A DNA stretch of 64,000 nucleotides. Source: Escherichia coli. Lineage in GTDB: Bacteria > Pseudomonadota > Gammaproteobacteria > Enterobacterales > Enterobacteriaceae. Under the pieces are notes generated by a model. It was not told the origin of the DNA, searched no databases, and saw only the letters and a list, made by a program, of their open reading frames with translations. The number at the start of each line of letters is the position of its first letter. The first letter of the stretch is position 1. The translations under genes and the position numbers were made by a program. This document shows, one piece after another, positions 28,311 through 62,140 of the stretch. The stretch is from the NCBI RefSeq assembly GCF_003019035.1, contig NZ_CP027447.1. One strand, given 5' to 3'.

Positions 28311-28490
28311 TGTATTGATTCACTTGAAGTACGAAAAAAAACCGGGAGGACATTGGATTATTCGGGATCTGATGGGATTAGATTTGGTGGGGCTTGCAAG
28401 CCTGTAGCGCAAATTTTAGTCGTTAATCAATGAAACGCGAAAGATAGTAAAAAATTGCTTTTGTTTCATTGAAAATACGAAAAACAAAAA
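28311..28490 (+). repeat. Prophage left end (attL) with transposase-binding sites L1-L3
   Basis: Terminal TG; end-binding repeats TGATTCACTTGAAGTACGAAAA (28317-28338), TGAAACGCGAAAGATAG (28431-28447), TTGTTTCATTGAAAATACGAAAAAC (28461-28485). Confidence 0.75.
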
Positions 28491-29584: not shown

Positions 29585-29586
29585 AA

Positions 29587-31587: not shown

Positions 31588-31625
31588 TTAACGTTTAAAC
31601 AAAATTTAATTACGAGGTTATTCAG

Positions 31626-32564: not shown

Positions 32565-32579
32565 GAAGGAGAAGAAATT

Positions 32580-32807: not shown

Positions 32808-32809
32808 CG

Positions 32810-33040
32810 ATGTGTATTAAAGCCGAAAAATATATTGAATGGGTTAAACACTGTCAGTGCCACGGGGTGCCGCTGACGACATATAAATGCCCCGGATGTG
32901 GTGAACAGATTATGACGCAATGCTCACCCGAAAAGGAAATTCGGGATTCCCTGACATGTTGTCCGTGGTGCAGCGCGGTTTTCTTTAAGCAGGTAAAAGG
33001 CGCGAAGGTAAAAGCCAGCGCAGTTATTCAGAATCAATAA
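32810..33040 (+). CDS. Small cysteine-rich early protein (possible zinc ribbon)
   Basis: ORF 32786..33040; probable start MCIKAEKY; CQCHG...CPGCGEQ...CCPWC cysteine pattern. Confidence 0.5.
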   Translation: MCIKAEKYIEWVKHCQCHGVPLTTYKCPGCGEQIMTQCSPEKEIRDSLTCCPWCSAVFFKQVKGAKVKASAVIQNQ

Positions 33041-33051
33041 GGAGAAACAAA

Positions 33052-33321
33052 ATGGCAAAGGTTATCTTTGAGTTTACATGGCTGGAAAGTAGTGACGGTT
33101 GCAATGGGCGCAGAGAAGTTCTGGATGCAAAAGCATGTCTTGCAGATATCTCGCCAACGGAAAATACCGGGCCTCATGATTTACTGGCAAATATCGTCCT
33201 GACTATGGCTCCTGAAATTATTAAAAAGGCCAAAGATGAGATGCTGACCACTATGAAGAAAGTGGGTATGGAGGCTGAATGTGATTTAGTACCACATCCG
33301 GTGAATGCGGTTAAACATTAA
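33052..33321 (+). CDS. Early-region hypothetical protein
   Basis: 89-aa ORF with RBS-like AGGAGA upstream; same strand as early operon. Confidence 0.5.
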   Translation: MAKVIFEFTWLESSDGCNGRREVLDAKACLADISPTENTGPHDLLANIVLTMAPEIIKKAKDEMLTTMKKVGMEAECDLVPHPVNAVKH

Positions 33322-33341
33322 TTCGCAAAGGAGCGCTGACA

Positions 33342-33761
33342 ATGAACGTCAAAATCCGAAATGAAATTCAGGCATTAATCCGAATTCAGGAACGCAATAA
33401 CAACGGTGGTGAATTACGCGAGTTTATTTGCGCCCGGAAAGTTGATGGTTGTGGTGAAAAGACTTACCTGATTGCTTTCGACCATTACAGCATCTGTGCG
33501 CGTTATTGCGGCGAAAGCATATCCCGCGCCATTGCATTTGGCGGTGCGTTCAACGTGGATTTATGGGAGTACGTCATGGACCGGGAATACATCTGCGCAT
33601 CAGACCCTGAAGCCCGTGAAATGTGGCAGCGTATCTGGCGCGATTACCGGTTAATGGCAAAAGGCTGGGCGCGCTGCTGTTATTCCTCGCTTGCCCTGAA
33701 AGCGGTTCAGTTATCGCTACGGCATATTCCGGCATCACTGCGCGAGCCTCTGCTGTACTGA
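33342..33761 (+). CDS. Early-region hypothetical protein (cysteine-rich)
   Basis: 139-aa ORF, AGGAG RBS upstream, several Cys residues. Confidence 0.5.
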   Translation: MNVKIRNEIQALIRIQERNNNGGELREFICARKVDGCGEKTYLIAFDHYSICARYCGESISRAIAFGGAFNVDLWEYVMDREYICASDPEAREMWQRIWRDYRLMAKGWARCCYSSLALKAVQLSLRHIPASLREPLLY

Positions 33762-34061
33762 ATGGTGACTGACATGAAGTGTAATCGTAAGCGCTGGTCA
33801 CGCGAAGACCGGGAATTTATCGAAGCCAACGTCGGAAAAATGACCGTTGAAGAAATGGCGGAAAAACTGAAAGTCGCCACAACCGCCCTCCGGGCACATG
33901 CCAGAAGGCACGGAATATCATTGTGTGTATACCGAATCAGTGAACACGACAAATATTTATGTCGTGAACTTTATAAAGAAGGACTGGATATTCATGTCAT
34001 TGCCCGAAAGATGGAATTAAGCAATCGAGCTGTATCCAGCATTGTATACAGCGGATATTAA
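33762..34061 (+). CDS. Early-region hypothetical protein with HTH-like segments
   Basis: 99-aa ORF contiguous with upstream gene. Confidence 0.45.
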   Translation: MVTDMKCNRKRWSREDREFIEANVGKMTVEEMAEKLKVATTALRAHARRHGISLCVYRISEHDKYLCRELYKEGLDIHVIARKMELSNRAVSSIVYSGY

Positions 34062-34080
34062 TTAACAGGAGCTTTAATTT

Positions 34081-34605
34081 ATGGCTAAACCAGCAAAACG
34101 TATCAAAAGTGCCGCAGCGGCTTATGTGCCACAAAACCGCGATGCGGTGATTACCGATATTAAACGCATCGGGGATTTACAGCGCGAAGCATCACGTCTG
34201 GAAACGGAAATGAATGATGCCATCGCGGAAATTACGGAGAAATTTGCAGCCCGGATTGCACCGATTAAAACCGATATTGAAACCCTTTCAAAAGGTGTTC
34301 AGGGATGGTGTGAAGCGAACCGCGACGAACTGACAAACGGCGGCAAAGTGAAGACGGCGAATCTTGTCACCGGTGATGTATCGTGGCGGGTCCGTCCACC
34401 ATCAGTAAGTATTCGTGGTATGGATGCAGTGATGGAAACGCTGGAGCGTCTTGGCCTGCAACGCTTTATTCGCACGAAGCAGGAAATCAACAAGGAAGCG
34501 ATTTTACTAGAACCGAAAGCGGTCGCAGGTGTTGCCGGAATTACAGTTAAATCGGGAATTGAAGATTTTTCCATTATTCCGTTTGAACAGGAAGCCGGTA
34601 TTTAA
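34081..34605 (+). CDS. gam: Gam host-nuclease inhibitor (Ku-like DNA end-binding protein)
   Basis: 174-aa ORF, size and sequence character of Mu Gam; AGGAG RBS. Confidence 0.85.
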   Translation: MAKPAKRIKSAAAAYVPQNRDAVITDIKRIGDLQREASRLETEMNDAIAEITEKFAARIAPIKTDIETLSKGVQGWCEANRDELTNGGKVKTANLVTGDVSWRVRPPSVSIRGMDAVMETLERLGLQRFIRTKQEINKEAILLEPKAVAGVAGITVKSGIEDFSIIPFEQEAGI

Positions 34606-34703
34606 TACCACCATTAATATTTAATTAATTCACATTCTTTTAATTATGGCGCGATGCGTCAGGGGATTGCTCGCGCCTGAAACAGATTACTGAGGAATAA
34701 AAC

Positions 34704-35234
34704 ATGGTTGATGCAAAAATTCTGAATGGTGTCAGCACATTATTACGGGCTTACGGACGCCTGACCTGCGGAGTTCTGGCTGAAAAAATGAAGATGCCTC
34801 CCTCATCAATGGTGTATTTCCTGCGTGATGCGGTTGATGTCGGCGTTCTCACCGAATGCAACGGATTTTATGACGTTCCGCGCCCGCGTCCGACGCCGCC
34901 TGTAAGACGAAACGCAACTGAGCAGCCTGCTGTTGATGATGCGGTGTGGTGCAACTGGCGTCGCTCATTACCCTGGGTGGAAGGTAATACCATCCCCGCA
35001 CTGGCAAAAGAGTTTGCGACAGGCGTACTGACCTGTGAGTCCGTTCACATCGTTGCAGAAGTGGATGACGAGATGTGCAAACAGGGAATGCCACGTTTTG
35101 TGATGGCTTATATCGATATCCGGCTGGGGCGGTTTATTTGCAGTTCAAGCGCCTGGAATATCACCGACCATGTACTGCGTTATCTCATTCTTGATTGTTC
35201 TCCGGCTCCCGTAGCGGTGCAGGAGGTGGCGTGA
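34704..35234 (+). CDS. Early-region hypothetical protein
   Basis: 176-aa ORF downstream of gam. Confidence 0.5.
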   Translation: MVDAKILNGVSTLLRAYGRLTCGVLAEKMKMPPSSMVYFLRDAVDVGVLTECNGFYDVPRPRPTPPVRRNATEQPAVDDAVWCNWRRSLPWVEGNTIPALAKEFATGVLTCESVHIVAEVDDEMCKQGMPRFVMAYIDIRLGRFICSSSAWNITDHVLRYLILDCSPAPVAVQEVA

Positions 35235-35758
35235 TGTTTTTTAAAACGTCAAATCCCGCAGCACTGCTGGCGTGGGACCAGTTTATGGCGGACTGTCTGA
35301 AACTACGCGAAGAAGCCCGCCATCTTGATAAGGTTCTGGGTTGTGGTTGCCGGTCAGTATTCAGCACAGGTATTGGTGGGCGTTATTTTCATGGTGTGAA
35401 CTTTCCGGGGAATGAGCGCCCTTTCTCGCGGGAGCTGTGGACCGTACAACGGCCCGCATCAGGTAACAGTTGCAGGCCTAGAACTTCGCGGATACCTGTT
35501 CATCTCAGGGAGCAGGCAAAAGAGCTGGCGAAAATATGGCAGGAGAATATTCCGGTCACTTATGCCCGCACAGATGCTCTTTTACCCGCACTGGGACTGG
35601 ATTTCAGCGCAACAATATTCGGGCCGCTCCGGTGGTTCCGTGTTGGTGATGTGATTTACGTCATGACGGGGATGACACCCGCACAGGGCTGCATGACGGA
35701 AATCCTGTCCGATGAATTCATGAAGGCAAAGATTGCGTTAAAGGGGGCCGCTAAATGA
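35234..35758 (+). CDS. Early-region hypothetical protein
   Basis: ORF 35195..35758; likely ATG 35234 (MFFKTSNPAALLAWDQF) with AGGAGG RBS at 35221, overlapping upstream stop. Confidence 0.5.
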   Translation: MFFKTSNPAALLAWDQFMADCLKLREEARHLDKVLGCGCRSVFSTGIGGRYFHGVNFPGNERPFSRELWTVQRPASGNSCRPRTSRIPVHLREQAKELAKIWQENIPVTYARTDALLPALGLDFSATIFGPLRWFRVGDVIYVMTGMTPAQGCMTEILSDEFMKAKIALKGAAK

Positions 35759-36423
35759 AAGAACGTGGCGTTGCTTTTAATGACGATATGGTCAGGGCAA
35801 TTCTCGAAGGAAGAAAGACGCAAACACGCCGCCCGGTAAAAAATGTCGGACACGATAACTGTCTGGTTATCCATCGTAACGGTGTTTATACCCACGTTAT
35901 GGATGCACCTGAGCATGGTTTATGCCCGTTCGGTAACGTTGGTGATCGCATCTGGGTCCGTGAAGCGTGGGCAATATTAGGCAATGAGGATGGTTGCAGT
36001 GTGGACTGGAACGGCAACCTTTGTCATGGCGATGAGAAGAAGGCAGCAAGGATTTATCGGGCAAGTTGTGAACAAAAGCCTGGTGATTACGGTCTGTGGT
36101 CAATACCTGATGATGCTGACTGGAAACCTCGCACTGTGAATGAAAAGTTTGATGGCAGGTGGTGCCCATCTATCCACATGCCGCGCTGGGCGTCGCGCAT
36201 TCTGTTGGGAATAACCGACGTGCGTGTGGAACGGCTGCATGATATTAGCGAGGCAGATGCGAAAGCGGAAGGCGCATTTCCGGCGACGTACAAAATTACG
36301 CCACCGGAAGCTGTTTATCGCGTTGGTTTTGGTGATATCTGGCGCGGTATTTATGGGCAAGATAACTGGCTGTCTAATCCGTGGGTATGGGTAATTGAGT
36401 TTAAGCGTATTCAGGAAGCATAA
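35755..36423 (+). CDS. Conserved prophage protein (ASCH/PUA-like N-terminal motif suspected)
   Basis: 222-aa ORF with N-terminal MVRAILEGRKTQTRRP and GDRIWVREAW motifs, recurrent in prophage proteins. Confidence 0.5.
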   Translation: MKERGVAFNDDMVRAILEGRKTQTRRPVKNVGHDNCLVIHRNGVYTHVMDAPEHGLCPFGNVGDRIWVREAWAILGNEDGCSVDWNGNLCHGDEKKAARIYRASCEQKPGDYGLWSIPDDADWKPRTVNEKFDGRWCPSIHMPRWASRILLGITDVRVERLHDISEADAKAEGAFPATYKITPPEAVYRVGFGDIWRGIYGQDNWLSNPWVWVIEFKRIQEA

Positions 36424-36425
36424 CT

Positions 36426-36767
36426 ATGAGCAAATCACTTAATGCACGTTGTATTCGCCGTTGGGAAGTCAGATTTAAGCCTGTTTGTGATTCAAAAGTT
36501 AGCCCTCACATGCGTAAAAGCTTTTTGCGTGGGGTGCGTGAATTAGGGCTTATTACGGCTGAAAACATGGTTGAAAGCATGGCTGAGAAAAACGCCAGGT
36601 TTGATTACGACGGCAAGGACACAGGCTGGTCACCGGAGTTTTCTAACTGGTATGCAACATGCCGAGAAAAGTATTGTAAAGAGGCCCGCGACTATCTGGA
36701 TGAAGAAGTCACAAACGATGAGATCGATGAAGAAATCAGAACTGAGCTAGAGTATTGGAATGACTAA
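36426..36767 (+). CDS. Early-region hypothetical protein with acidic C-terminal tail
   Basis: 113-aa ORF ending DYLDEEVTNDEIDEEIRTELEYWND. Confidence 0.45.
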   Translation: MSKSLNARCIRRWEVRFKPVCDSKVSPHMRKSFLRGVRELGLITAENMVESMAEKNARFDYDGKDTGWSPEFSNWYATCREKYCKEARDYLDEEVTNDEIDEEIRTELEYWND

Positions 36768-36837
36768 TCTGGCCGATATGACCGGAAAGTGTTTCAGCGA
36801 TACAAGCGGTGTGGTAGCACCGCTTTTTAAAGGTATG

Positions 36838-37392
36838 ATCATGAGTCGCACATCCCTGATTAAATTAATCCATGTCGCCCGTCGTGATCTACAACTCGAC
36901 GACGATACTTACCGCGCTTTTCTGATGCAGAAAACGGGCAAAATCAGTTGCCGCGAGCTGACGGTAACGCAACTGGAACAGGTGCTCGATGCCATGAAAG
37001 AACGCGGCTTTAAGAAGCTGAATAAACATCCACGTCGCCGCTTTAAGGGGCATGTCACGCCCCGCGAGAAGGTATACAAAGTCTGGCAGCAGATGGCAGA
37101 AGACGGTTTTATTACCGATGGCGGTGATGTGGCGCTGGATAAATATGTTCAGCGCCTGACGGCGAAACGTAATGGCGGACAGGGTGTTTCCACGCTGGCG
37201 TGGTGTCATGGCGACACCCTGTTGATTGTTCTCGAAACTCTCAAGCAGTGGCATATCCGCTGTATTCGTGAAGCCTTTTCCCGTCACGGGCTTCCGTTGC
37301 CGGTCAGTCCGTCCGGGCGTGAACTGCGCGGCTATGATGCCATGACGGCGGCTTATGCCCATGCCAGAAAGACACGGAGGATGGCACAATGA
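36838..37392 (+). CDS. gemA: GemA-like protein
   Basis: ORF 36760..37392; probable internal start MIMSRTSLIKLIHVARRDLQLDD; sits immediately upstream of mor as in Mu. Confidence 0.6.
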   Translation: MMSRTSLIKLIHVARRDLQLDDDTYRAFLMQKTGKISCRELTVTQLEQVLDAMKERGFKKLNKHPRRRFKGHVTPREKVYKVWQQMAEDGFITDGGDVALDKYVQRLTAKRNGGQGVSTLAWCHGDTLLIVLETLKQWHIRCIREAFSRHGLPLPVSPSGRELRGYDAMTAAYAHARKTRRMAQ

Positions 37393-37778
37393 CGGAAGAT
37401 TTATTTGGTGATTTGCAGGATGACACCATCCTGGCACATCTTGACAATCCCGCAGAGGATACGTCACGCTTTCCGGCACTGCTGGCGGAGCTGAACGATT
37501 TACTGCGCGGGGAATTGTCCCGGCTGGGTGTTGATCCTGCCCATTCACTGGAGATTGTAGTGGCTATCTGTAAGCATCTGGGCGGCGGTCAGGTCTACAT
37601 TCCACGCGGTCAGGTTCTGGACTCGCTGATTCGGGATTTGCGTATCTGGAATGATTTTAACGGTCGCAACGTCAGCGAACTGACCACCCGTTATGGTGTC
37701 ACTTTCAATACGGTTTACAAGGCCATTCGCCGGATGCGACGGCTGAAATACCGCCAGTACCAGCCCTCACTTCTGTAA
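37389..37778 (+). CDS. mor: Middle operon regulator Mor
   Basis: 129-aa ORF; C-terminal HTH (NGRNVSELTTRYGVTFNTVYKAIRR) homologous to protein C downstream. Confidence 0.85.
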   Translation: MTEDLFGDLQDDTILAHLDNPAEDTSRFPALLAELNDLLRGELSRLGVDPAHSLEIVVAICKHLGGGQVYIPRGQVLDSLIRDLRIWNDFNGRNVSELTTRYGVTFNTVYKAIRRMRRLKYRQYQPSLL

Positions 37779-37783
37779 ACAGT

Positions 37784-37808
37784 AAAGCCGGTTAATCCGG
37801 CTTTTTTT
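37784..37808 (+). terminator. Rho-independent terminator after mor (end of early transcript)
   Basis: AAAGCCGG-TTAA-CCGGCTTTTTTT. Confidence 0.7.
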
Positions 37809-37855
37809 ACGTCCTCAATATCCTGTGATGAATAACCGTACCGGGGGAAATCATC

Positions 37856-38086
37856 ATGGGTAAAGGCTGGAATGCATCCTTTCATCTTGGCAGACGTGAG
37901 CGGCTGCGTCAGGAGGTTTTGCACCGTGTCGCCGGTGGGCCTCGGCCTTCGCCCCGCGACTATACCGGTCATGATGGCACCCACGGCAGTTATTACATGA
38001 AAGGCTGGCAGTCAGTTGATATGCCGGAAATTCTTCACCACTGTCAACGTTATAAGGAAAAATATTGTGTACAGAAAATTCAGTGA
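37856..38086 (+). CDS. Hypothetical small protein between mor and C
   Basis: 76-aa ORF; weak support. Confidence 0.3.
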   Translation: MGKGWNASFHLGRRERLRQEVLHRVAGGPRPSPRDYTGHDGTHGSYYMKGWQSVDMPEILHHCQRYKEKYCVQKIQ

Positions 38087-38119
38087 TGAATGTTTCGGGC
38101 CGTCCACGCTGATTAGTGC

Positions 38120-38197
38120 GATAAAAGTGATTGCCCTTGTGGTTCTGATAACCATCAGTGCCGTGGTGTATCTTTCTGTCTGTTAACCGGGGGAAAT
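38120..38197 (+). promoter_or_regulatory. Probable Mor-dependent middle promoter region (Pm) upstream of C
   Basis: Position only: in Mu, Pm lies directly upstream of C. Confidence 0.3.
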
Positions 38198-38620
38198 ATG
38201 CAGCATGATTTATTTGAACACGATCCGGCAATTCGCCAGTTAATCGGACATATTGATAACATCCCGGCCCCGGAACTGGAATCACGCTGGCCCCGTTCGG
38301 TGGTTGATCTGATTGATGTTCTGGAAAACGAACTGAAACGCCAGAACGTCAGCAATCCCCGTGAACTTGCCCGTAAACAGGCCGTTGCCCTGTCCTGTTT
38401 TCTGGGGGGGCGGCAGTTTTACATCCCCTGCGGCGATACTATCCTGACCGCGTTACGCGACGATTTGCTTTACTGCCAGTTCAATGGTCGTAACATGGAA
38501 GAACTGCGTCGCCAGTACCGCCTGTCCCAGCCGCAGATCTACCAGATTATTGCCCGCCAGAGAAAGCTGCATACACGACGTCATCAGCCTGATCTGTTCT
38601 CACCTGAAAGCCAGAAATAA
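38198..38620 (+). CDS. C: Late transcription activator C
   Basis: 140-aa ORF; C-terminal region (NGRNMEELRRQYRLSQPQIYQIIARQRK) paralogous to Mor. Confidence 0.85.
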   Translation: MQHDLFEHDPAIRQLIGHIDNIPAPELESRWPRSVVDLIDVLENELKRQNVSNPRELARKQAVALSCFLGGRQFYIPCGDTILTALRDDLLYCQFNGRNMEELRRQYRLSQPQIYQIIARQRKLHTRRHQPDLFSPESQK

Positions 38621-38646
38621 CCGGCATCCTGCCGGTTATTTCCTGT
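38620..38646 (+). terminator. Hairpin after C
   Basis: CCGGCA-TCC-TGCCGG followed by TTATTT. Confidence 0.4.
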
Positions 38647-38649
38647 CAC

Positions 38650-38711
38650 CATAATCCCGCACCTGCCATCTGATTTTTTAGACTGCCATCAGAGCATTTT
38701 TTCAGGGAAGC
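38650..38711 (+). promoter_or_regulatory. Probable C-dependent late promoter (Plys) region
   Basis: Position only, between C and lys. Confidence 0.3.
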
Positions 38712-39230
38712 ATGATGGCGGGGATACCAAAAAAACTGAAAGCCGCACTGCTGGCGGTAACGATTGCCGGTGGCGGTGTGGGTGGTTATCAGGAAATGAC
38801 CCGTCAGTCTCTGATCCACCTGGAAAATATCGCTTATCTGCCTTACCGCGATATTGCCGGTGTGCTTACGGTCTGTGTGGGACATACCGGGCCGGATATC
38901 GAAATGCGCCGTTACAGCCATGCGGAGTGTATGGCTCTCCTCGACAGTGATTTAAAACCGGTTTATGCGGCAATCGATCGTCTTGTCAGGGTGCCGCTGA
39001 CGCCATATCAGAAAACGGCGCTGGCAACGTTTATTTTCAACACCGGTGTTACCGCATTCAGTAAAACAACGTTGCTGAAAAAACTCAATGCCGGTGATTA
39101 CGCCGGAGCGCGTGACCAGATGGCCCGCTGGGTGTTTGCCGCAGGCCATAAATGGAAAGGACTGATGAACCGTCGCGAAGTGGAAATGGCAATCTGGAAT
39201 ATCAGGGGGGCGGATGACCTTCGCCAGTAA
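38712..39230 (+). CDS. lys: Endolysin (lysozyme-like) with N-terminal signal-anchor
   Basis: 172-aa ORF; N-terminal hydrophobic Gly-rich segment LKAALLAVTIAGGGVGG. Confidence 0.8.
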   Translation: MMAGIPKKLKAALLAVTIAGGGVGGYQEMTRQSLIHLENIAYLPYRDIAGVLTVCVGHTGPDIEMRRYSHAECMALLDSDLKPVYAAIDRLVRVPLTPYQKTALATFIFNTGVTAFSKTTLLKKLNAGDYAGARDQMARWVFAAGHKWKGLMNRREVEMAIWNIRGADDLRQ

Positions 39231-39600
39231 AAGTTTACTGCTGGCAGCCGTGTTTGCCGCCGTTCTGTCTGGGGTGTTGTGGCACAGGCTGGACAGCACC
39301 CGCCACGATAACCAGACGCTGCGCCGTGAATTACAGACGGAGCAACAGGCCCGCAACACGGCTGAATGGTTGTTACACAGTCAGGAACAGACGATGCAGG
39401 TATTTTCCGCTATCCGTGCCGCAAATCGTGCCGCGCGGCTGGCAGATGAGACAGAACATCATGATGCAAAACAAAAAATTACAACCGCCATTACCGGTGA
39501 CAATTGCAGCACTCGTCCTGTGCCTGCCGTTGCTGCTGACAGGTTGCGGGAACTCGAAAAACGCACCCGTGCCATCGGTGGTGATCCTGCCCGAAACTGA
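39214..39600 (+). CDS. Inner-membrane spanin-like protein
   Basis: 128-aa ORF with N-terminal TM helix (LLLAAVFAAVLSGVLW) then charged coiled-coil-like region. Confidence 0.55.
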   Translation: MTFASKSLLLAAVFAAVLSGVLWHRLDSTRHDNQTLRRELQTEQQARNTAEWLLHSQEQTMQVFSAIRAANRAARLADETEHHDAKQKITTAITGDNCSTRPVPAVAADRLRELEKRTRAIGGDPARN

Positions 39601-39802
39601 TGCAGAACTGACGGAAGCAACGCCCGTTCCGCCCATGCCACAGCCCCTGACGTGGGGAGCATCCCTTCTCTGGAATGCTGACCTGCTGATGGCGCTCGGG
39701 CAGTGCAACCGCGACAAGGCATCAGTCCGGGAACAGGAGACCCGGAGGAAAGAAATTTATGAACGAAGACCAGAACCGGGCGGTGGCGCTGCTGCTCGCT
39801 GA
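39461..39802 (+). CDS. Outer-membrane lipoprotein spanin-like protein, overlapping the preceding gene out of frame
   Basis: Within ORF 39254..39802: MMQNKKLQPPLPVTIAALVLCLPLLLTGC... with lipobox LTGC; Pro-rich. Confidence 0.45.
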   Translation: MMQNKKLQPPLPVTIAALVLCLPLLLTGCGNSKNAPVPSVVILPETDAELTEATPVPPMPQPLTWGASLLWNADLLMALGQCNRDKASVREQETRRKEIYERRPEPGGGAAAR

Positions 39803-39953
39803 ACTCTGGCAGGGGAATACCCGTGATATTCCCCGTCCGGCGGCGTATGACCCGCCTGTATTGTGTGCCGGTTGCGGTCGTGAGCTGCGGCCTGATGTGC
39901 TGAGACAGCAGCCAATGGCGAACTACTGCCACTGGTGCCGTGGAGCAGAATAA
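39759..39953 (+). CDS. Small Cys4 protein
   Basis: 64-aa ORF with CAGCG...CHWC. Confidence 0.35.
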   Translation: MNEDQNRAVALLLAELWQGNTRDIPRPAAYDPPVLCAGCGRELRPDVLRQQPMANYCHWCRGAE

Positions 39954-40252
39954 TGGATTTGATTTCAGTTTTAGCGTTATGGCCTTACCTGTTGCCTGTT
40001 GTGGCCGGTGGGGCCGTCTGGGCGATGCGTCGTAGTTTTGCCAGCACCGAGCGTGTGGAGCGTCTTGAAAACCGGATGACCGAAATGGAAACCCGCTACG
40101 CCAGCATCCCTGGCACAGAAGATGTACACGAAATGCGCCTGCGTATTGCAGAGCTGTCCGGCGATATCCGGGTGCTGTCCCAGCGGGTGCAGTCATTTTC
40201 CCATCAACTGGAGCTGCTGCTTGAAAACGCAGTAAACCGGAGTAATTCATGA
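39953..40252 (+). CDS. Hypothetical small membrane/coiled-coil protein
   Basis: ORF 39935..40252; likely ATG 39953 overlapping upstream stop; MDLISVLALWPYLLPVVAGGAVWA TM segment. Confidence 0.45.
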   Translation: MDLISVLALWPYLLPVVAGGAVWAMRRSFASTERVERLENRMTEMETRYASIPGTEDVHEMRLRIAELSGDIRVLSQRVQSFSHQLELLLENAVNRSNS

Positions 40253-40539
40253 TTAACGATATTCTGACCGAAGACCGTCGTCTGGTCATCCTGCGTTCCC
40301 TGATGGACTGCAATAACGAAGCCAACGAATCCATCCTTCAGGACTGTCTGGATGCATACGGACACAACGTTTCCCGCGATGTGGTTCGCGGCCAGATTGA
40401 CTGGCTGGCAGAGCAGCAACTGGTCACCGTGGAAAACCTGCGCGGCTTTTATGTCGTAACGCTGACCTCCCGAGGTCAGGATGTGGCGGAAGGCCGCGCC
40501 CGCGTTGCCGGTGTCAAGCGTCCGCGTCCCCGTGCATGA
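40249..40539 (+). CDS. Hypothetical protein upstream of terminase genes
   Basis: 96-aa ORF, 4-bp overlap with neighbours. Confidence 0.45.
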   Translation: MINDILTEDRRLVILRSLMDCNNEANESILQDCLDAYGHNVSRDVVRGQIDWLAEQQLVTVENLRGFYVVTLTSRGQDVAEGRARVAGVKRPRPRA

Positions 40540-41126
40540 CAGGAGGCGTGATGGACAGGAAAACACGGGGCCGGGCTTCAAAAGTGGATTTACTGCCGGA
40601 AAACGTACGTAAAACGCTGCATGAAATGCTGCGTGATAAGGCGATCCCACAGGCCCGCATTCTGGAAGAAATTAACGCACTGATTGAAGACGCTGGCCTG
40701 CCGGATGAGATGAAACTCTCCCGTTCCGGTCTGAACCGTTACGCGACGAACGTCGAGCAGGTAGGCCATAACCTGCGACAGATGCGTGAAATGACGTCAG
40801 CACTGACCGCAGAACTTGGCGACAAGCCAATGGGAGAAACCACAAAGCTGATTCTGGAAATGGCCCGCAGCCAGCTTTTTAAGGCCATGATGCGGCAAAT
40901 CGAAAACCCGGAATCTGACGTGGATATTGACCTGCTGAAAAATGCCATGCTGGCGGCACAGCGTCTGGAATCCACGGCAATGTCCAGCCACCGGCGCGAG
41001 AAAGAAATCCGCCAGGCATTCGCAGAAGAAGCGGCAAACGCCGTCAGTGAAGAACTGCGCGGGCAGGATGGCATCAGCGAAGAGCTGGAGCAGCGTATCC
41101 GTGATGTGCTGCTGGGTAAGGCATGA
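40536..41126 (+). CDS. Putative terminase small subunit
   Basis: 196-aa ORF immediately upstream of large terminase. Confidence 0.55.
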   Translation: MTGGVMDRKTRGRASKVDLLPENVRKTLHEMLRDKAIPQARILEEINALIEDAGLPDEMKLSRSGLNRYATNVEQVGHNLRQMREMTSALTAELGDKPMGETTKLILEMARSQLFKAMMRQIENPESDVDIDLLKNAMLAAQRLESTAMSSHRREKEIRQAFAEEAANAVSEELRGQDGISEELEQRIRDVLLGKA

Positions 41127-41133
41127 GAGGGTT

Positions 41134-42789
41134 ATGAACACCAGAGAAAACAACCTTAAAGCCCTTCATGCCCCCCGAAAAATCAACCTGCGTGAGGAAG
41201 CCGAACTGCTCGGCGTGAATATCGTGACCGATATCGGGGAAGCACAGCCCCGCAATGAACCGGTTTTTCTGGGCTATCAGCGCCGCTGGTTTGAGGATGA
41301 AAGCCAGATTTGCATCGCTGAAAAATCCCGTCGTACCGGTCTGACATGGGCCGAAGCGGGCCGCAATGTCATGACGGCAGCAAAGCCGCGCCGCCGTGGC
41401 GGTCGCAACGTCTTTTATGTGGGTTCCCGTCAGGAAATGGCGCTGGAATATATCGCCGCCTGTGCCCTGTTTGCCCGCGCCTTTAACCAGCTGGCAAAGG
41501 CTGATGTCTGGGAGCAGACCTTCTGGGACAGCGACAAAAAAGAAGAAATCCTCACTTATATGATCCGTTTCCCTAACAGCGGATTTAAGGTGCAGGCGCT
41601 GTCAAGCCGTCCGTCTAACCTGCGTGGTTTGCAGGGGGACGTGGTGATTGATGAGGCGGCATTTCATGAAGCCCTGGACGAACTCCTGAAAGCGGCCTTT
41701 GCTCTCACCATGTGGGGTGCCCGCGTGCGGATCATATCGACACATAACGGCGTCGATAACCTGTTTAACCAGTACATTCAGGATGCGCGCGAGGGGCGCA
41801 AGGATTACAGCGTTCACCGCATCACGCTGGATGATGCCATCGCTGACGGGTTGTACCGACGTATCTGTTACGTCACGAATCAGCCGTGGTCGCCGGAAGC
41901 GGAAAAAGCCTGGCGTGATGGCCTGTACCGGAATGCGCCGAATAAAGAGAGTGCCGACGAGGAATACGGCTGCATTCCTAAAAAATCCGGGGGCGCTTAT
42001 CTGTCACGCGTGCTGATTGAAGCCGCCATGACGCCAGCGCGGGATATCCCGATTCTGCGTTTTGAAGCCCCGGACGATTTTGAATCGCTGACACCACAAA
42101 TGCGCCACGGCATCGTTCAGGACTGGTGTGAACAGGAGCTGCTCCCGTTGCTCGATGCGCTGTCGCCGCTCAATAAACACGTACTGGGCGAAGACTTTGC
42201 ACGCCGTGGCGACCTGACGGTGTTTGTTCCGCTTGCCATCACTCCTGACTTACGCAAACGCGAATGTTTCCGCGTGGAGCTGCGTAATGTGACCTATGAC
42301 CAGCAGCGACAAATCCTTTTATTCATTCTGTCCCGTTTGCCCCGTTTTACCGGCGCTGCATTTGATGCCACCGGTAACGGCGGTTATCTGGCAGAAGCCA
42401 CCCGTCTGATTTATGGCCCGGAGATGATCGACTGTGTGAATCTGACCGCATCCTGGTATCAGGAGTGGATGCCAAAACTGAAAGGCGAGTTTGAAGCGCA
42501 GAACATCACGATTGCCCGGCACCAGACCACTCTTGATGACCTGCTCCACATCAAGGTGGACAAAGGTATTCCGCAGATTGATAAGGGGCGCACAAAAGAT
42601 GAAGGTGGTAAAGGCCGACGACATGGCGACTTTGCCGTGGCGCTCTGTATGGCTGTCAGAGCGTCTTATATGAATGGTTTTGTTATCGACGAGGACAGCA
42701 TACAGGCGCTGCCACCACGCCACCGTGGTGATGATGTTGATAACGATGATTTTGATGATTATCACCAGTTTGAACGAGGGGGCTGGTAA
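41134..42789 (+). CDS. Terminase large subunit
   Basis: ORF 40942..42789; probable ATG 41134 (MNTRENNLKALHAPRKINLREEAELLG), about 551 aa. Confidence 0.8.
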   Translation: MNTRENNLKALHAPRKINLREEAELLGVNIVTDIGEAQPRNEPVFLGYQRRWFEDESQICIAEKSRRTGLTWAEAGRNVMTAAKPRRRGGRNVFYVGSRQEMALEYIAACALFARAFNQLAKADVWEQTFWDSDKKEEILTYMIRFPNSGFKVQALSSRPSNLRGLQGDVVIDEAAFHEALDELLKAAFALTMWGARVRIISTHNGVDNLFNQYIQDAREGRKDYSVHRITLDDAIADGLYRRICYVTNQPWSPEAEKAWRDGLYRNAPNKESADEEYGCIPKKSGGAYLSRVLIEAAMTPARDIPILRFEAPDDFESLTPQMRHGIVQDWCEQELLPLLDALSPLNKHVLGEDFARRGDLTVFVPLAITPDLRKRECFRVELRNVTYDQQRQILLFILSRLPRFTGAAFDATGNGGYLAEATRLIYGPEMIDCVNLTASWYQEWMPKLKGEFEAQNITIARHQTTLDDLLHIKVDKGIPQIDKGRTKDEGGKGRRHGDFAVALCMAVRASYMNGFVIDEDSIQALPPRHRGDDVDNDDFDDYHQFERGGW

Positions 42790-44327
42790 TGGGCCGTATT
42801 CTGGATATTTCCGGGCAGCCGTTTGATTTTGACGATGAAATGCAGACCCGCAGCGATGAGCTGGCAATGGTCATGAAGCGTACGCAGGAGCATCCTTCCA
42901 GTGGTGTGACGCCGAACCGGGCCGCGCAGATGCTGCGTGATGCCGAACGCGGTGATCTGACCGCACAGGCTGACCTGGCCTTTGATATGGAAGAAAAGGA
43001 CACCCACCTTTTTTCCGAACTGAGCAAGCGCCGCCTTGCCATTCAGGCGCTGGAATGGCGCATCGCTCCGGCACGTGATGCCAGCGCACAGGAGAAAAAA
43101 GACGCCGACATGCTGAATGAATATCTGCATGATGCGGCGTGGTTTGAAGATGCCCTGTTTGATGCCGGTGATGCCATTCTCAAGGGTTATTCCATGCAGG
43201 AGATTGAATGGGGCTGGCTGGGCAAAATGCGCGTGCCGGTGGCGCTGCATCATCGCGATCCGGCGCTGTTCTGTGCGAACCCCGACAATCTGAACGAATT
43301 ACGCCTGCGTGATGCGTCTTATCACGGGCTGGAGCTGCAACCGTTCGGCTGGTTTATGCACCGGGCCAAATCCCGCACCGGGTATGTCGGCACCAATGGC
43401 CTTGTGCGCACGCTTATCTGGCCTTTTATTTTTAAAAACTATTCCGTGCGTGATTTTGCAGAGTTTCTGGAAATTTACGGACTCCCCATGCGCGTTGGTA
43501 AATATCCGACCGGCTCAACGAACCGCGAGAAAGCCACGCTGATGCAGGCCGTGATGGATATCGGGCGACGTGCCGGTGGCATTATTCCGATGGGGATGAC
43601 GCTGGATTTTCAGAGCGCCGCAGATGGTCAGTCAGACCCTTTTATGGCGATGATTGGCTGGGCAGAAAAAGCGATTTCAAAAGCCATTCTGGGCGGCACC
43701 CTGACCACAGAGGCTGGCGATAAAGGTGCGAGGTCGCTGGGTGAAGTGCATGATGAGGTTCGCCGGGAAATCCGTAACGCGGATGTGGGCCAGCTTGCCC
43801 GCAGTATTAACCGTGACCTGATTTATCCCCTGCTGGCACTGAACAGTGACAGCACCATTGATATTAACCGCCTGCCGGGCATTGTATTTGATACCAGTGA
43901 AGCGGGTGATATTACGGCACTGTCTGACGCCATTCCGAAACTGGCGGCGGGAATGCGTATTCCGGTTTCCTGGATACAGGAAAAACTTCATATTCCACAA
44001 CCGGTCGGTGATGAAGCCGTGTTTACTGCTCAACCGGTTGTCCCGGATAACGGTCCGCAGAAAGAGGCCGCATTATCCGCTGAAGATATCCCGCAGGAGG
44101 ATGATATCGACCGGATGGGCGTCTCACCGGAAGACTGGCAGCGTTCGGTTGATCCCCTGCTGAAACCCGTCATTTTTTCTGTGCTGAAAGATGGCCCGGA
44201 AGCCGCCATGAACAAAGCTGCTTCATTATATCCGCAGATGGATGATGCAGAACTTATCGACATGCTGACCCGTGCCATTTTTGTTGCCGATATATGGGGG
44301 CGTCTGGATGCCGCAGCAGACCATTGA
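42789..44327 (+). CDS. Portal protein
   Basis: 512-aa ORF following terminase; ATG overlaps terminase stop. Confidence 0.8.
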   Translation: MGRILDISGQPFDFDDEMQTRSDELAMVMKRTQEHPSSGVTPNRAAQMLRDAERGDLTAQADLAFDMEEKDTHLFSELSKRRLAIQALEWRIAPARDASAQEKKDADMLNEYLHDAAWFEDALFDAGDAILKGYSMQEIEWGWLGKMRVPVALHHRDPALFCANPDNLNELRLRDASYHGLELQPFGWFMHRAKSRTGYVGTNGLVRTLIWPFIFKNYSVRDFAEFLEIYGLPMRVGKYPTGSTNREKATLMQAVMDIGRRAGGIIPMGMTLDFQSAADGQSDPFMAMIGWAEKAISKAILGGTLTTEAGDKGARSLGEVHDEVRREIRNADVGQLARSINRDLIYPLLALNSDSTIDINRLPGIVFDTSEAGDITALSDAIPKLAAGMRIPVSWIQEKLHIPQPVGDEAVFTAQPVVPDNGPQKEAALSAEDIPQEDDIDRMGVSPEDWQRSVDPLLKPVIFSVLKDGPEAAMNKAASLYPQMDDAELIDMLTRAIFVADIWGRLDAAADH

Positions 44328-45627
44328 TCTGGCGTATGCCGCACGCCTCCCGCCAAAGGAGGCTGTCGCGTATTTCCGCGCCAAAGGCTACAACATCACC
44401 TGGAACTGGTACGAACAACTGGCAGACGCGCACGCCCGCGCCTTTACCGTTGCCAAAGCCACCCGGATGGATGTCCTGACCACAATCCGTGAGGAAGTGG
44501 AGCGGGCTGTCAGTGAAGGCATCACCCGTGAGGAATTTACCCGCACACTGGCCCCCCGGCTGCAAAAACTCGGATGGTGGGGAAAACAAATCATCGTGGA
44601 TGCAGACGGAAACGCGAAGGTAATCGAGCTGGGCAGTCCGCGTCGTCTGGCAACCATTTATAACGTCAATACCCGTACGGCGTATGGGGCAGGACGTTAT
44701 GCGCAGATGATGAATACCGCCGATTTGTACCCGTACTGGCAGTACGTTGCCGTTATGGATGGCAGAACACGCCCGGAACATGCGCGGCTGCACAATATGG
44801 TTTTCCGGTATGACGACATTTTCTGGCAGACGCATTACCCGCCCAATGGCTGGAACTGCCGCTGTCGCGTCCGGGCGCTGTCTGCGGCCCGCATGAAAGA
44901 ACTGGGGCTACAGGTCAGTTATGGTGCGTCATTCATGAATACCCGCGAAGTGGATGCCGGTACGGATGAAAGCACCGGAGAGATTTTCCGCACATCGTCA
45001 ACCACGTTTGACAACGGTCGGGTAAAAATGACGCCAGATGTGGGCTGGTCATATAACCCTGGTTCGGCGGCATTTGGTACGGATCAGGCACTGATTCGAA
45101 AACTGGTGGAAATTCGCGACGCGCAGTTGCGTGAGCAGGTTGTTCAGACGCTGAATAACAGCCGGGAGCGTCAGCTTGCTTTTTCCCTCTGGCTTAAACG
45201 CTTGGCAGGATCACGTCAGACCGGTCATGAAATCTGGGCACTGGGTTTTATGACGGAATCGGTAGCTGAAGCCGTACATCAGCGCACCGGGAATATGCCA
45301 GCCCGTCTGCTTGTGATGAACGGGAAAAGTCTGGCGACCACTGCTGATGCCGCCCTGAAACCGGAGGATTTACAGCATCTGCCGTCGCTGATGGCAAAAC
45401 CACAGGCAGTATTGTGGGACAGGGAGAACCACCAGTTGCTGTATGTTGTGGCAACCCGTGACGGCATGGCCCGGATTGTGGTCAGAACATCACAGACAGT
45501 CGGCAGGCAGAATGACCGTGCGGATGTGCTGGTCAGTATCAGCCGCGTATCTGCACAGTCGCTTGAAACCGCGATTGCTGACGGGATGATTGACGTACTG
45601 GAGGGGCATGTGGAGGTGAATAAGTGA
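44308..45627 (+). CDS. F: Head morphogenesis protein F
   Basis: ORF 44272..45627; probable ATG 44308 (MPQQTIDLAYAARLPPKEAVAYF). Confidence 0.75.
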   Translation: MPQQTIDLAYAARLPPKEAVAYFRAKGYNITWNWYEQLADAHARAFTVAKATRMDVLTTIREEVERAVSEGITREEFTRTLAPRLQKLGWWGKQIIVDADGNAKVIELGSPRRLATIYNVNTRTAYGAGRYAQMMNTADLYPYWQYVAVMDGRTRPEHARLHNMVFRYDDIFWQTHYPPNGWNCRCRVRALSAARMKELGLQVSYGASFMNTREVDAGTDESTGEIFRTSSTTFDNGRVKMTPDVGWSYNPGSAAFGTDQALIRKLVEIRDAQLREQVVQTLNNSRERQLAFSLWLKRLAGSRQTGHEIWALGFMTESVAEAVHQRTGNMPARLLVMNGKSLATTADAALKPEDLQHLPSLMAKPQAVLWDRENHQLLYVVATRDGMARIVVRTSQTVGRQNDRADVLVSISRVSAQSLETAIADGMIDVLEGHVEVNK

Positions 45628-46094
45628 GTCTTGATATGAACGTTGCCGTGGATGTGCGACGTATTCAGCTTGCACTGGATGAACTGGGAACCGTTACACG
45701 TGACCGCGCCATTCCCCGTGTGATGGCTGCGGCGCTGCTGTCATCCACGGAACAGGCATTTGAACGGCAGGCAGACCCGGATACAGGGAAAGGCTGGGAA
45801 GCGTGGAGCGATTCGTGGCAGGCATGGCGTCAGGATCATGGTTTTGTTCCGGGCAGTATCCTTACCCTGCATGGCGATCTGGCACGCAGCATTACCACCG
45901 ATTATGGACAGGATTATGCCCTGATTGGTTCGCCAAAAATTTATGCTGCCATTCATCAGTGGGGCGGTACACCCGATATGGCACCCCGCCCGGCAGGCGT
46001 TCCTGCGCGTCCTTATATGGGGCTGGATAAGACCGGGGAACAGGAAATTTTTGATGCCATCAGAAAACGCGTCAGCGCTGCTCTGAGGCAATAA
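45624..46094 (+). CDS. G: Virion morphogenesis protein G
   Basis: 156-aa ORF overlapping F stop. Confidence 0.7.
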   Translation: MSLDMNVAVDVRRIQLALDELGTVTRDRAIPRVMAAALLSSTEQAFERQADPDTGKGWEAWSDSWQAWRQDHGFVPGSILTLHGDLARSITTDYGQDYALIGSPKIYAAIHQWGGTPDMAPRPAGVPARPYMGLDKTGEQEIFDAIRKRVSAALRQ

Positions 46095-46290
46095 ACTGAA
46101 TCAGACATGAAATCAGCTGCACAGATTTTTTAAAACGCGCCACGGGATTTTTAAACCGGTATTTAACGGTGTATGAATCCCGTTTTATCTTCCTTCCACT
46201 TTCTTTCTCCATTACTCAAATAGCATAACCCCAGATTTTCCCGCACCTCCCGCAAACTGACTGCTCACAAACCATGATGAGCAGCAGGAC
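46095..46290. promoter_or_regulatory. Central non-coding region: candidate strong gyrase site and late promoter for the I operon
   Basis: Only sizeable non-coding gap inside the late region, about 17.8-18.0 kb from the left end, i.e. near the centre of a ~36.7 kb Mu-type genome. Confidence 0.45.
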
Positions 46291-47376
46291 ATGAAAAAAC
46301 ACGCGATTGGCATTGCCGCACTGAGTGCGCTGTCCATTGACGATGACGGCTGGTGCCAGCTATTGCCTGCCGGTCATTTCAGTGCCCGTGATGGTCGTCC
46401 GTTTGATGTGACAGACGGTCAGGGGTGGTTCATCGACGGTGAGATTGCCGGGCGTCTGGTTGAAGGCGTTCGCGCGCTCAACCAGGACGTGCTGATTGAT
46501 TACGAGCATAACCAGCTACGTAAGGACAAAGGATTACCCCCGGAACAACTCGTCGCGGCTGGCTGGTTTAACGCCGATGAAATGCAGTGGCGTGAAGGTG
46601 AAGGGTTATTTATCCACCCACGCTGGACGGCGGCGGCCCAGCAGCGCATCGATGACGGCGAATTTGGTTATCTCTCTGCGGTTTTTCCGTATGACACCGC
46701 CACCGGTGCAGTGCTGCAAATCCGCCTTGCTGCGCTGACCAATGACCCCGGTGCCACCGGCATGAAAAAGCTGACCGCACTGGCGGCAGACCTTCCCGAC
46801 ATCCTTCAACAGGAGAACAAACCCATGAATGAAACGCTGCGCAAGCTGCTTGCGCGTCTTGGGGTGACGGTCCCCGAAAATGCAGACATCACCGATGAAC
46901 AGGCCAGCGCGGCCCTGAGTGCGCTTGATGCGCTCGAAACAGATGCCGGAAAAGTGGCGGCGTTGTCTGCCGAACTGGAAAAGGCACAGAAAGCCGCCGT
47001 TGACCTGACGAAATACGTCCCGGTGGAAAGCTACAACGCCCTGCGTGATGAACTGGCACAGGCGACTGCACAAAGCGCCACAGCCAGCCTGAGCGCCGTT
47101 CTGGACAAGGCGGAACAGGAAGGCCGCATTTTCAAAAGCGAACGTACCTATCTGGAACAGCTTGGCGGTCAGATTGGCGTGGCGGCACTGTCGGCACAGC
47201 TTGAGAAAAAACAGCCTATCGCTGCGTTATCTGCCATGCAGACCACCACAGCGAAAATCCCGTCGCAGGAAAAAACGGCGGTGGCGGTGCTGTCTGCTGA
47301 TGAACAGGCAGCAGTGAAGGCGCTCGGCATTACAGAGGCTGAGTATCTGAAAATGAAACAGGAACAAGAAAAATGA
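46291..47376 (+). CDS. I: Head protease/scaffold protein I
   Basis: 361-aa ORF; Ala/Glu-rich coiled-coil C-terminal half typical of scaffold. Confidence 0.8.
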   Translation: MKKHAIGIAALSALSIDDDGWCQLLPAGHFSARDGRPFDVTDGQGWFIDGEIAGRLVEGVRALNQDVLIDYEHNQLRKDKGLPPEQLVAAGWFNADEMQWREGEGLFIHPRWTAAAQQRIDDGEFGYLSAVFPYDTATGAVLQIRLAALTNDPGATGMKKLTALAADLPDILQQENKPMNETLRKLLARLGVTVPENADITDEQASAALSALDALETDAGKVAALSAELEKAQKAAVDLTKYVPVESYNALRDELAQATAQSATASLSAVLDKAEQEGRIFKSERTYLEQLGGQIGVAALSAQLEKKQPIAALSAMQTTTAKIPSQEKTAVAVLSADEQAAVKALGITEAEYLKMKQEQEK

Positions 47377-48290
47377 TTGTCACCCCGGCATCCATTAAAG
47401 CCCTGATGACCTCCTGGCGTAAGGATTTTCAGGGCGGTCTTGAAGACGCCCCGTCGCAGTACAGCAAAATTGCAATGGTGGTGAACTCCTCCTCCCGCAG
47501 TAATACCTATGGCTGGCTGGGTAAATTCCCTGCCATGAAAGAATGGGTGGGTAAGCGAACCATTCAGCAAATGGCAGCGCATGGCTACTCCATCGCCAAT
47601 AAAACGTTTGAAGGCACCGTGGGCGTAAGCCGTGATGACTTCGAGGATGACAATCTGGGCATTTATGCGCCGATGTTTCAGGAGATGGGCCGTTCTGCGG
47701 CAGTTCAGCCGGATGAGCTGATTTTTAAACTTCTGAAAGATGGCTTTACCCAGCCGTGCTATGACGGTCAGAACTTCTTCGACAAGGAGCATCCGGTATA
47801 TCCGAATGTGGACGGCACGGGCAGCGCGGTTAATACCTCCAACATCGTTGAGCAGGACAGCTTCAGCGGTCTGCCGTTCTATCTGCTGGACTGCTCCCGC
47901 GCAGTCAAACCGCTGATTTTCCAGGAGCGCCGCAAACCGGAACTGGTCGCACGTACCCGTATCGATGACGACCACGTTTTTATGGATAACGAGTTCCTGT
48001 TTGGTGCCAGCGCCCGCCGTGCTGCCGGTTACGGCTTCTGGCAGATGGCTGTCGCGGTAAAAGGTGATCTGACGCTGGATAACCTCTGGAAGGGCTGGCA
48101 ACTGATGCGTGCGTTTGAAGGTGATGGCGGTAAGAAGCTGGGCCTGAAGCCGACACATATCGTTGTACCGGTCGGGCTGGAAAAAGCCGCAGAGCAACTG
48201 CTTAACCGTGAACTGTTCGCGGATGGCAATACCACCGTCTCCAACGAGATGAAGGGCAAGCTGCAACTGGTTGTCGCTGACTACCTGTAA
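47373..48290 (+). CDS. T: Major head subunit T
   Basis: 305-aa ORF overlapping I stop; size matches Mu T. Confidence 0.85.
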   Translation: MIVTPASIKALMTSWRKDFQGGLEDAPSQYSKIAMVVNSSSRSNTYGWLGKFPAMKEWVGKRTIQQMAAHGYSIANKTFEGTVGVSRDDFEDDNLGIYAPMFQEMGRSAAVQPDELIFKLLKDGFTQPCYDGQNFFDKEHPVYPNVDGTGSAVNTSNIVEQDSFSGLPFYLLDCSRAVKPLIFQERRKPELVARTRIDDDHVFMDNEFLFGASARRAAGYGFWQMAVAVKGDLTLDNLWKGWQLMRAFEGDGGKKLGLKPTHIVVPVGLEKAAEQLLNRELFADGNTTVSNEMKGKLQLVVADYL

Positions 48291-54442: not shown

Positions 54443-55930
54443 ATGTTTGAAGATGCTTTAAATGCCGTTAATGCTGTCCGGGATAAAATCAGCGGTGGTA
54501 AGAAAACAACCGGCAAAGGCACGTTTCGTAACGTGCCGTTTCTCGTCATCGAGGAGCAAAAACAGGCTGGCGGACGTCGCCTGGTTAAACGCGAGTACCC
54601 GTTACGTGATACCGGCGGCGTCAATGACCTGGGGAAAAAGCTTCGCTCCCGTACATTCAGCGCCTGCATTCTGAACAGCAACGCAGAAACAGCCAGAGAT
54701 GAAGCGGGTGCGCTGATGGATGCTCTTGATGCTCCGGGTAGCGGTGAGCTGGTACATCCTGATTTCGGCACTGTGGACGTCATGGTGGATTCATGGGAAT
54801 GCCGCACTAAAGCGGATGAACTGAATTATTACGCGTTCACCGTTACCGTTTATCCGTCGTTGCAGGATACTGCCCCGGACGCAGAGACAGACACCAGTGC
54901 AGCCGTACCGGCACAGGCCGTTGCTGTAACCGGTTCTCTGGGAGATACGCTATCCTCTGTCTGGCAGACCGTAAAAGATGGCACTGCGGCGGCAACCGCC
55001 GTGATGGAAGCTGTAACCGGTGTCATCGATGATATCAGTGATGCGGTGGACAATCTGGGGGTTACGCAGACTGTCAGCGGTCTGATGGGATCGCTTTCTG
55101 CGATGAAAGGCTCTGTGACCAGCCTGATTAACCAGCCTGCCATGCTGGCCTCCTCGCTGATGGGGGCGCTGTCCGGCGTTTCATCGTTATGCGATACCCG
55201 GACAGCATTTTCCACATGGAACCGTCTGGCGCAGCGATTCGAACGTCGCCATGCCGCCACCGCAGGCAGACAGGGGGCAATCACAACCTCGTACAACAGT
55301 CCGGTTGCAGAAAAAAATATTGCCACACTGAACTACGTCATGCTGGCAGCAGCACAGACATACCGAGCGGAGGCAGCAAGCCAGGCACTGACTGCGGCAC
55401 TGGATTTCAGTCGCCGGATGGATAATGCCGCCCGTGCACCTGTACTGGATGCCCCGTCCACCACAACCGGCACAGCCAGCGGGGCCAGCAGCACATCCGC
55501 TACCGTCACACAGGGACAGTTACAGTTAACTGCCATAACCCCGGACGGCGGCTTTTCACAGGTATCCTTTTCAGACAGTGGTACAGCCACGCCCCCGGTA
55601 TTTGAAAGTGTGTCCGATATCGGAAAAACAGCCGCCATGCTGGGGGCTGCACTGGATACCGTCATTCTGACGGCATCTGAGCAGGGCTTTTCGACAGACA
55701 GCGTTCAGCTTACGCAACTGCGTCTGCTGGTTGTTGCCGACCTGGAAAAACGCGGGCTGCAACTGGCGGGCAGTGAAACGCACCGCCTGCCGGAGACGAT
55801 GCCTGCAATGGTGGCCCTGTACCGTTACACAGGAAACAGCCGGAACTGGCAACGGCTGGCCCGCAGGAACGGTATCAGCAACCCGTTGTTTGTTCCCGGT
55901 GGTGTCAGTATTGAGGTGATTAATGAGTAA
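54443..55930 (+). CDS. N: DNA circularisation protein N
   Basis: 495-aa ORF after tape measure, as in Mu. Confidence 0.7.
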
Positions 55931-61048: not shown

Positions 61049-61049
61049 C

Positions 61050-61577: not shown

Positions 61578-61583
61578 AAATTA

Positions 61584-61604: not shown

Positions 61605-61605
61605 C

Positions 61606-62139: not shown

Positions 62140-62140
62140 A

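Follow-up and report, generated by a model that had tools for sequence, protein, structure and literature searches.

A predicted Mu-type strong gyrase site, a probable terminator and the late promoter PI in the G–I gap of an Escherichia coli Mu-family prophage

The window analysed here, a 64,000-nucleotide stretch of Escherichia coli DNA, carries from position 28311 onward a prophage of the Mu family (Muvirus) with about 98% identity to Mu, D108, Mu_3F6 and PhiR68_1. The initial annotation had placed the left end of the prophage at 28311, and this was correct, as the window reads Mu position 1, TGTATTGATTCACTTGAAGTACG, at that point. Window 38068-60267 follows Mu 9832-32032 collinearly, with 98.2% identity and one gap. 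The last base of the window corresponds to Mu 35989, so that ~728 bp of the prophage right end lie beyond it and a prophage length of ~36.4 kb is predicted. All the early and late genes that were checked are intact, and, judged from its sequence, the prophage is probably replication-competent.

The prophage is inserted in E. coli ddpA, with its junction (28306-28311) inside the gene, whose product is the substrate-binding protein of the D-Ala-D-Ala dipeptide ABC transporter. The junction on the right, like the 5-bp target duplication, falls beyond the window end. The host flank (20000-28310) is 100% identical to E. coli strain SCU-301, a strain absent among the 40 genomes matching the G–I region. 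Overall, the nearest record is Escherichia phage PhiR68_1, with 98.1% identity over 96% of 27500-47500. Three segments of the early region (28770-29748, 33072-33326 and 35722-36799) gave no blastn alignment to Mu, which points to mosaic immunity (repressor/ner) and semi-essential early regions. In the region of the tail fibre and invertible G-segment (60268-63010), identity to Mu is 69-92%, against 98% in the remaining late region, and some pieces match Mu in inverted orientation. This divergence suggests a different host-range cassette or the other orientation of the G-segment.

Between the late genes G and I, 196 bp (46095-46290) remained unassigned after the open reading frame map and all Mu late proteins had been mapped onto the window. 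This gap is the largest truly non-coding stretch from lys to the tail-fibre gene S, followed in size within the late region by gaps of 94 bp between C and lys and of 66 bp between T and gp35. Two further spaces, of 158 and 144 bp, look empty but are occupied in the Mu record by the o-spanin gene and the frameshifted tail chaperone. Protein mapping thus upholds the earlier description of a non-coding stretch of about 200 bp within the late operons. The GC content of the gap is 0.41-0.43, versus 0.53-0.60 in its flanks, and an Rfam scan of the gap at E<=1 returned zero matches. The features located in and around the gap are collected in Table 1.

Table 1. Features of the G–I region and associated elements of the prophage, in window coordinates.
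Feature	Position	Strand	Remarks
Prophage left end (attL)	28311..28360	+	Reference point for the 'central' position; Mu position 1 = TGTATTGATTCACTTGAAG
Gene C, late-transcription activator needed by PI	38198..38620	+	Intact; 98.6% aa identity to Mu C, 140/140 residues
Gene G (gp31)	45624..46094	+	156 aa; 99.4% aa identity to Mu G; last ~43 bp hold the SGS left arm
SGS left arm	46052..46091	.	Inside G; anatomy of PMC6463007 via indel-free alignment; +-3 bp
SGS core (G-segment)	46092..46141	.	Annotated cut at 46114/46115
Gyrase cut site	46114/46115		Mu 17879..17880; AF083977, NC_000929
SGS right arm with phased T/A tracts	46142..46201	.	Essential in its first 40 nt (46142-46181)
Terminator-like hairpin	46142..46192	+	Stem arms 46142-46150 and 46175-46183, then tail UUUUAUCUU
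TransTermHP terminator	46143-46188		Mu 17908-17953; AF083977
Late promoter PI	46212..46278	+	66/67 identity to Mu 17977-18043; AF083977 (PMID 2522923)
Proposed C site in PI	46214-46229	+	ACTCAAATAGCATAAC
Conserved PI box	46223-46232	+	GCATAACCCC
PI -10 hexamer	46253-46258	+	CAAACT; predicted start near 46265
Gene I (gp32, head protease/scaffold)	46291..47376	+	Start codon at 46291 = Mu 18056 (AF083977); 98.1% aa identity to Mu I (361/361 residues); heads the PI transcript

The gap aligns with Mu 17860-18055 without indels and with six substitutions (window position = Mu position + 28235), and its alignment to D108 is also free of indels. Annotation of the gap was taken from the curated Mu record AF083977; the RefSeq record NC_000929 also marks the gyrase cut site. 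Alignment to the Mu strong gyrase site (SGS), the check proposed in the initial annotation, therefore gave a positive result, with the annotated cut site inside the gap. A 601-bp query around the gap showed 99.5% identity to Mu_3F6, 99.0% to D108 and 98.5% to Mu, SfMu and Yersinia Mu-like phages; over the same 601 bp, D108, Mu_3F6, SfMu, PhiR68_1 and the Yersinia vB_YpM Mu-like phages span 98.3-99.5%, and Mu_3F6 has just 2 differences from the window within 46040-46300. Variation was followed in a set of 22 Mu-group sequences: the window, 10 E. coli prophages, 6 phages, 4 contigs from IMG/VR and 1 from a metagenome. Between 46040 and 46300, this set varies at 5 positions at the 3' end of G, at 6 in the SGS core, at 1 in the distal right arm and at 3 in the part that holds the promoter. 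The SGS was also sought by exact pattern, any base being allowed at the four positions that follow the annotated cut; this recovered 4 loci in IMG/VR and 1 in metagenomes, a number too small for allele statistics.

On the basis of these alignments, we consider it very probable (about 0.93) that the gap holds the Mu SGS, a likely terminator and the C-activated promoter of I, PI. This arrangement has already been described for Mu and is no new biology; its occurrence in another Mu-type prophage confirms the annotation of the window. The small addition made here is a catalogue of natural variation, comprising an invariant essential right arm, a polymorphic left half of the core and one rare allele by the scission.

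A coding role for the gap was weighed against this reading. Small open reading frames are annotated there in two public records, namely 'gene 31.5' of D108 on the + strand (L003 1701-1829) and a minus-strand frame of Mu_3F6 (L029 323-463), and the window's own list of reading frames includes one of 46 aa on the minus strand at 46072-46212. That either of them encodes a small protein is barely credible. On the + strand, 'gene 31.5' would need ATC as its start. The minus-strand ATG exists only with a T at 46212, where Mu, D108 and 18 of the 22 relatives have G, and the 46-aa frame is unlikely because its start codon is made by this base. Both frames are also lost in the more distant Mu-like lineages L008, L009-L014 and L033. 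These small-frame readings were rejected on the three grounds of ATC start, non-conserved ATG and loss in distant lineages, and the two annotated genes look like annotation artefacts over a cis-acting site.

The SGS has been divided into a left arm (-65 to -26), a core (-25 to +25) and a right arm (+26 to +85) whose initial 40 nt are essential (PMC6463007). In transferring these parts to the window, the annotated cut was assumed to be the top-strand scission of the 4-bp stagger; the resulting coordinates hold to within 3 bp, since the GenBank cut feature and the scissile-bond numbering of PMC6463007 disagree by as much as 3 bp. Window 46047-46179 is the counterpart of the 133-bp Mu SGS fragment characterized by gyrase EMSA and supercoiling (PMC6379681). 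Over this stretch, the window is identical to wild-type Mu at 128/133 positions and to the PMC6379681 fragment itself at 127/133, the fragment, amplified from pMP1000, having one extra change relative to wild-type Mu at Mu 17881 (G>C). The initial equation of the gap with the gyrase site is thus sustained by the sequence matches but not in its extent: the SGS begins within G, ~43 bp upstream of the gap, and takes up no more of the gap than its first ~107 bp.

The three parts of the site differ in how closely they follow Mu. First, the left arm, reported to be dispensable in Mu (PMC6463007), carries a single and synonymous substitution, 46079 C>T. Secondly, the core shows four differences, at 46097, 46105, 46109 and 46118, the first three of which are common polymorphisms shared with D108-type phages. 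Across the 22 sequences, core variation is found at 46097, 46105, 46107, 46109, 46118 and 46139, the left half of the core being polymorphic. Thirdly, 46142-46195 is identical to Mu, and the essential right arm (46142-46181) shows zero variation in the 22 sequences, an observation that is statistically weak alone with ~2 variable sites expected in 40 bp; the sole variable position of the right arm is the distal 46196. Compared with the Mu SGS, the site of the window therefore keeps the location between G and I, the position at ~49% of genome length, the right arm and the hairpin overlapping it, while its 5 substitutions in 133 bp consist of the synonymous change in G, the three common core polymorphisms and a rare C>T at 46118.

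The A/T periodicity of the right arm at 10.5-11 bp, taken as the best of 40 starts, lies in the top 0.1-1% of the window without being its maximum. According to published work, the right arm carries the critical information of the SGS and wraps one GyrA C-terminal domain, with the minor grooves of its AT tracts toward the protein, and presents the T-segment (PMC6463007, PMC10052514, PMC11626157). With the gyrase-motif position matrix of PMC6379681, Mu has a score of 14.3. A proxy for this published 130-bp motif, scoring identity and S/W-pattern match to the 133-bp consensus, ranked the SGS between 4,103rd and 21,821st of 127,736 positions. This low rank is attributed to the 69% GC of the consensus, which favours GC-rich DNA, and the consensus-match scan was rejected as a test of the SGS on account of this GC bias.

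To extend the comparison, five further Mu-like lineages were examined, including L008, L009-L014 and the O157 Mu-like element L033. Identity of the G protein is 85% in L008 and 54-58% in L009-L014 and L033, in which I is 47-53% identical. In these lineages the G–I gap is kept at 170-220 bp and is mostly unalignable. Phased TTTTT(G/A)AA tracts are retained at the same distance from the G stop, spaced by ~21, 12 and 10 bp, with three to four tracts per phage (~1990-2060 in L009-L014, ~2000-2050 in L008 and ~1700-1750 in L033). The invariant columns of the distant-lineage alignment correspond to window 46148-46166, within the right arm, which is the best-conserved block of the gap in Mu-like phages whose G is ~55% identical. 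This conservation of the tracts matches the published importance of the right arm (PMC6463007, PMC10052514, PMC11626157), and the Mu-like site of O157 Sakai can replace the Mu SGS (PMC10052514).

Distant Mu-like prophages, such as the O157 Mu-like element of Sp18 type, thus have in common with the window a G–I gap of 170-220 bp, phased T/A tracts and usually a U-tailed hairpin. They differ from it in that only the tract pattern is shared, the window holding a true Muvirus copy. The spacing of the TTTTT(G/A)AA tracts provides a usable signature for SGS-like sites in uncharacterised transposable phages. Closer to Mu, Pato and Banerjee reportedly found in 1999 that a central fragment of D108 is able to substitute for the Mu SGS. 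The gap of L009 type gave no match in a megablast against complete E. coli genomes, and its assignment to the O157 Sp18 element was rejected on this result.

The RNA of 46142-46183 folds into a hairpin with a 9-bp outer and a 4-bp inner stem (-19.8 kcal/mol, z = -3.2 to -3.3), a stability equalled by no more than 2 of 200 shuffled sequences. This hairpin matches the terminator predicted by TransTermHP in the Mu record and shares sequence with the essential right arm of the SGS. It was left uncalled by a simple promoter/terminator scan of 45600-46600 because of its long interrupted loop. Comparable U-tailed hairpins are present in L008, L009 and L012, and weak ones in L011 and L033. The hairpin of the window is the probable 3' end of the late transcript running from lys to G, which its U-tailed structure would terminate.

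A U-tailed hairpin followed by PI would suffice to account for an intergenic spacer, and the prophage could be defective beyond the window, so that the gap might be an operon boundary only, composed of terminator and promoter, in which the likeness to a gyrase site is functionless in this prophage. We regard this as very improbable, given that the identity at 128 of 133 positions concerns an experimentally defined site with all essential right-arm bases kept, that the early and late genes checked are intact, and that the phased tracts persist in distant Mu-like phages whose remaining gap has diverged. A gap combining the SGS with the terminator and PI is the preferred reading.

A C-dependent promoter preceding I had also been anticipated, and the near-complete identity of PI to its Mu counterpart (66/67), together with the intact C gene, bears this out at the sequence level. 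The 64 kb contain exactly 3 copies of the box SCATAAYCCC, for 0.53 expected by chance, all on the + strand and at the promoters Plys, PI and PP. Four late promoters were located in the window, Plys (38638-38704), PI (46212-46278), PP (55522-55588) and Pmom (63704-63770), and all have in common the spacing ATAA-N24-(-10 hexamer), with TAGACT, CAAACT, TATCCT and TAAGAT as their respective -10 hexamers. PP sits within the N gene, as it does in Mu. In its -10, its lack of a -35 and its ATAA 24 nt upstream, PI is like the late promoters of Mu (Plys, PI, PP and Pmom; Margolin, Rao & Howe 1989), and the CATAAYCCC box is common to PI, Plys and PP (PMC2582627, PMC12867686).

A simple scan of 45600-46600 found no sigma-70 -35/-10 pair, which is to be expected of a promoter that depends on an activator; CCCAGA, the hexamer located 17 bp before the PI -10, matches TTGACA at 2/6 positions. 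C-dependent promoters contain a 16-bp imperfect dyad centred at -43.5, with the consensus TTAT-N5-6-ATAA (PMC2582627, PMC12867686). In PI, the right half ATAA (46225-46228) and the CCCC box are present and the left half is poor (CTCA/TCAA versus TTAT), as in the PI of Mu. The sole difference from Mu PI is the 46212 G>T change, ~2 bp upstream of the 16-bp C site; the window shares T at this position with Mu_3F6, SfMu and a single E. coli prophage (4/22 sequences in all), and the change is probably neutral. By analogy with Mu, PI would act as a sigma-70 promoter with a weak -10 and without a -35, firing only when phage C is bound near -43.5 and driving I, T and the downstream genes. A 6-codon upstream frame (46274-46294; ATG ATG AGC AGC AGG ACA TGA) overlaps the start codon of I through ATGA. 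It is not conserved, since the equivalent upstream ATG of L008 is in frame with I, and is probably meaningless.

The left end and the cut site are 17,804 bp apart, which is ~48.9% of the predicted prophage length, as compared with 48.7% in Mu. As the right end is beyond the window, this centrality is extrapolated from collinearity with Mu over ~36.4 kb, and by this extrapolation the near-midpoint location proposed initially holds. Full function of the SGS in Mu needs central placement (PMC10052514, PMC3820752).

The Mu SGS is the textbook case of a cis element that uses host supercoiling to join distant transposon ends, and the standard substrate in structural and single-molecule work on gyrase; it is, to our knowledge, the strongest gyrase site known. 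Deleting it from Mu delays replication after induction by ~100 min. We infer gyrase binding, termination and C-dependence in the present copy from Mu. In such a model, host DNA gyrase would bind the SGS (~46052-46201) and cleave near 46114/46115. The phased bends of the right arm (46142-46201) would be wrapped round one GyrA C-terminal domain, allowing processive supercoiling, which could extrude a plectonemic loop with the SGS at its apex. The prophage ends, ~18 kb to each side, would thereby be paired for transpososome assembly and replicative transposition.

The substitution of the core nearest to the scission could modify this activity. Position 46118 is T in the window and C in Mu, D108 and 19/22 of the compared sequences, changing AGCC to AGCT when the annotated cut is taken as the beginning of the stagger. 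To retrieve the allele, a 31-bp query was used in which each 28-mer seed was forced to include 46118. T was found in 2/40 complete E. coli genomes carrying the locus, both of them Taiwanese blood isolates, and was not found in 13 phage records. The annotated scission is no more than 4 bp from this position, and 2 bp away lies G46116 (Mu 17881), which is wild type in the window and is the only base separating the pMP1000-derived fragment from wild-type Mu. Single-base nuB changes near the scission are described as enhancing supercoiling, and pMP1000 carries a nuB allele, named nuB103 in the text and nuB101 in a figure legend (PMC6463007). In a review legend, the enhancing nuB1 change is located at '+3 G' (PMC6463007), a base that we infer to be G46116; the base descriptions of nuB in PMC6463007 do not match the G>C at Mu 17881 in the pMP1000-derived fragment.

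The proximity of 46118 to the scission and to the base altered in the pMP1000-derived fragment, the enhancing nuB changes and the rarity of the T allele could together indicate an altered SGS, in which 46118 C>T changes gyrase cleavage or processivity, as a nuB-like up-allele or as a down-allele, and replication kinetics differ from those of Mu. We consider this unlikely, since the allele is present in at least three genomes and is not obviously deleterious, the critical information has been assigned to the right arm (PMC10052514, PMC6463007), which is unchanged here, and functional phages, Mu and D108 among them, differ freely at 46097, 46105 and 46109. The finding of the allele in three genomes speaks in particular against a severe defect. 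It is equally doubtful that T at 46118 naturally modulates SGS strength in the manner of the nuB mutations made in the laboratory; if it did, wild Mu-type prophages would tune the strength with which they recruit host gyrase. An SGS working as in Mu thus stays the favoured reading of the core.

The two rarest substitutions within 46040-46300 are those at 46079 and 46118, and both are C>T changes turning GCCGC into GCTGC. The former, in an Ala codon of G where it is synonymous, occurs in 0/21 relatives. Their shared context may be a coincidence or may reflect the deamination of a methylated cytosine.
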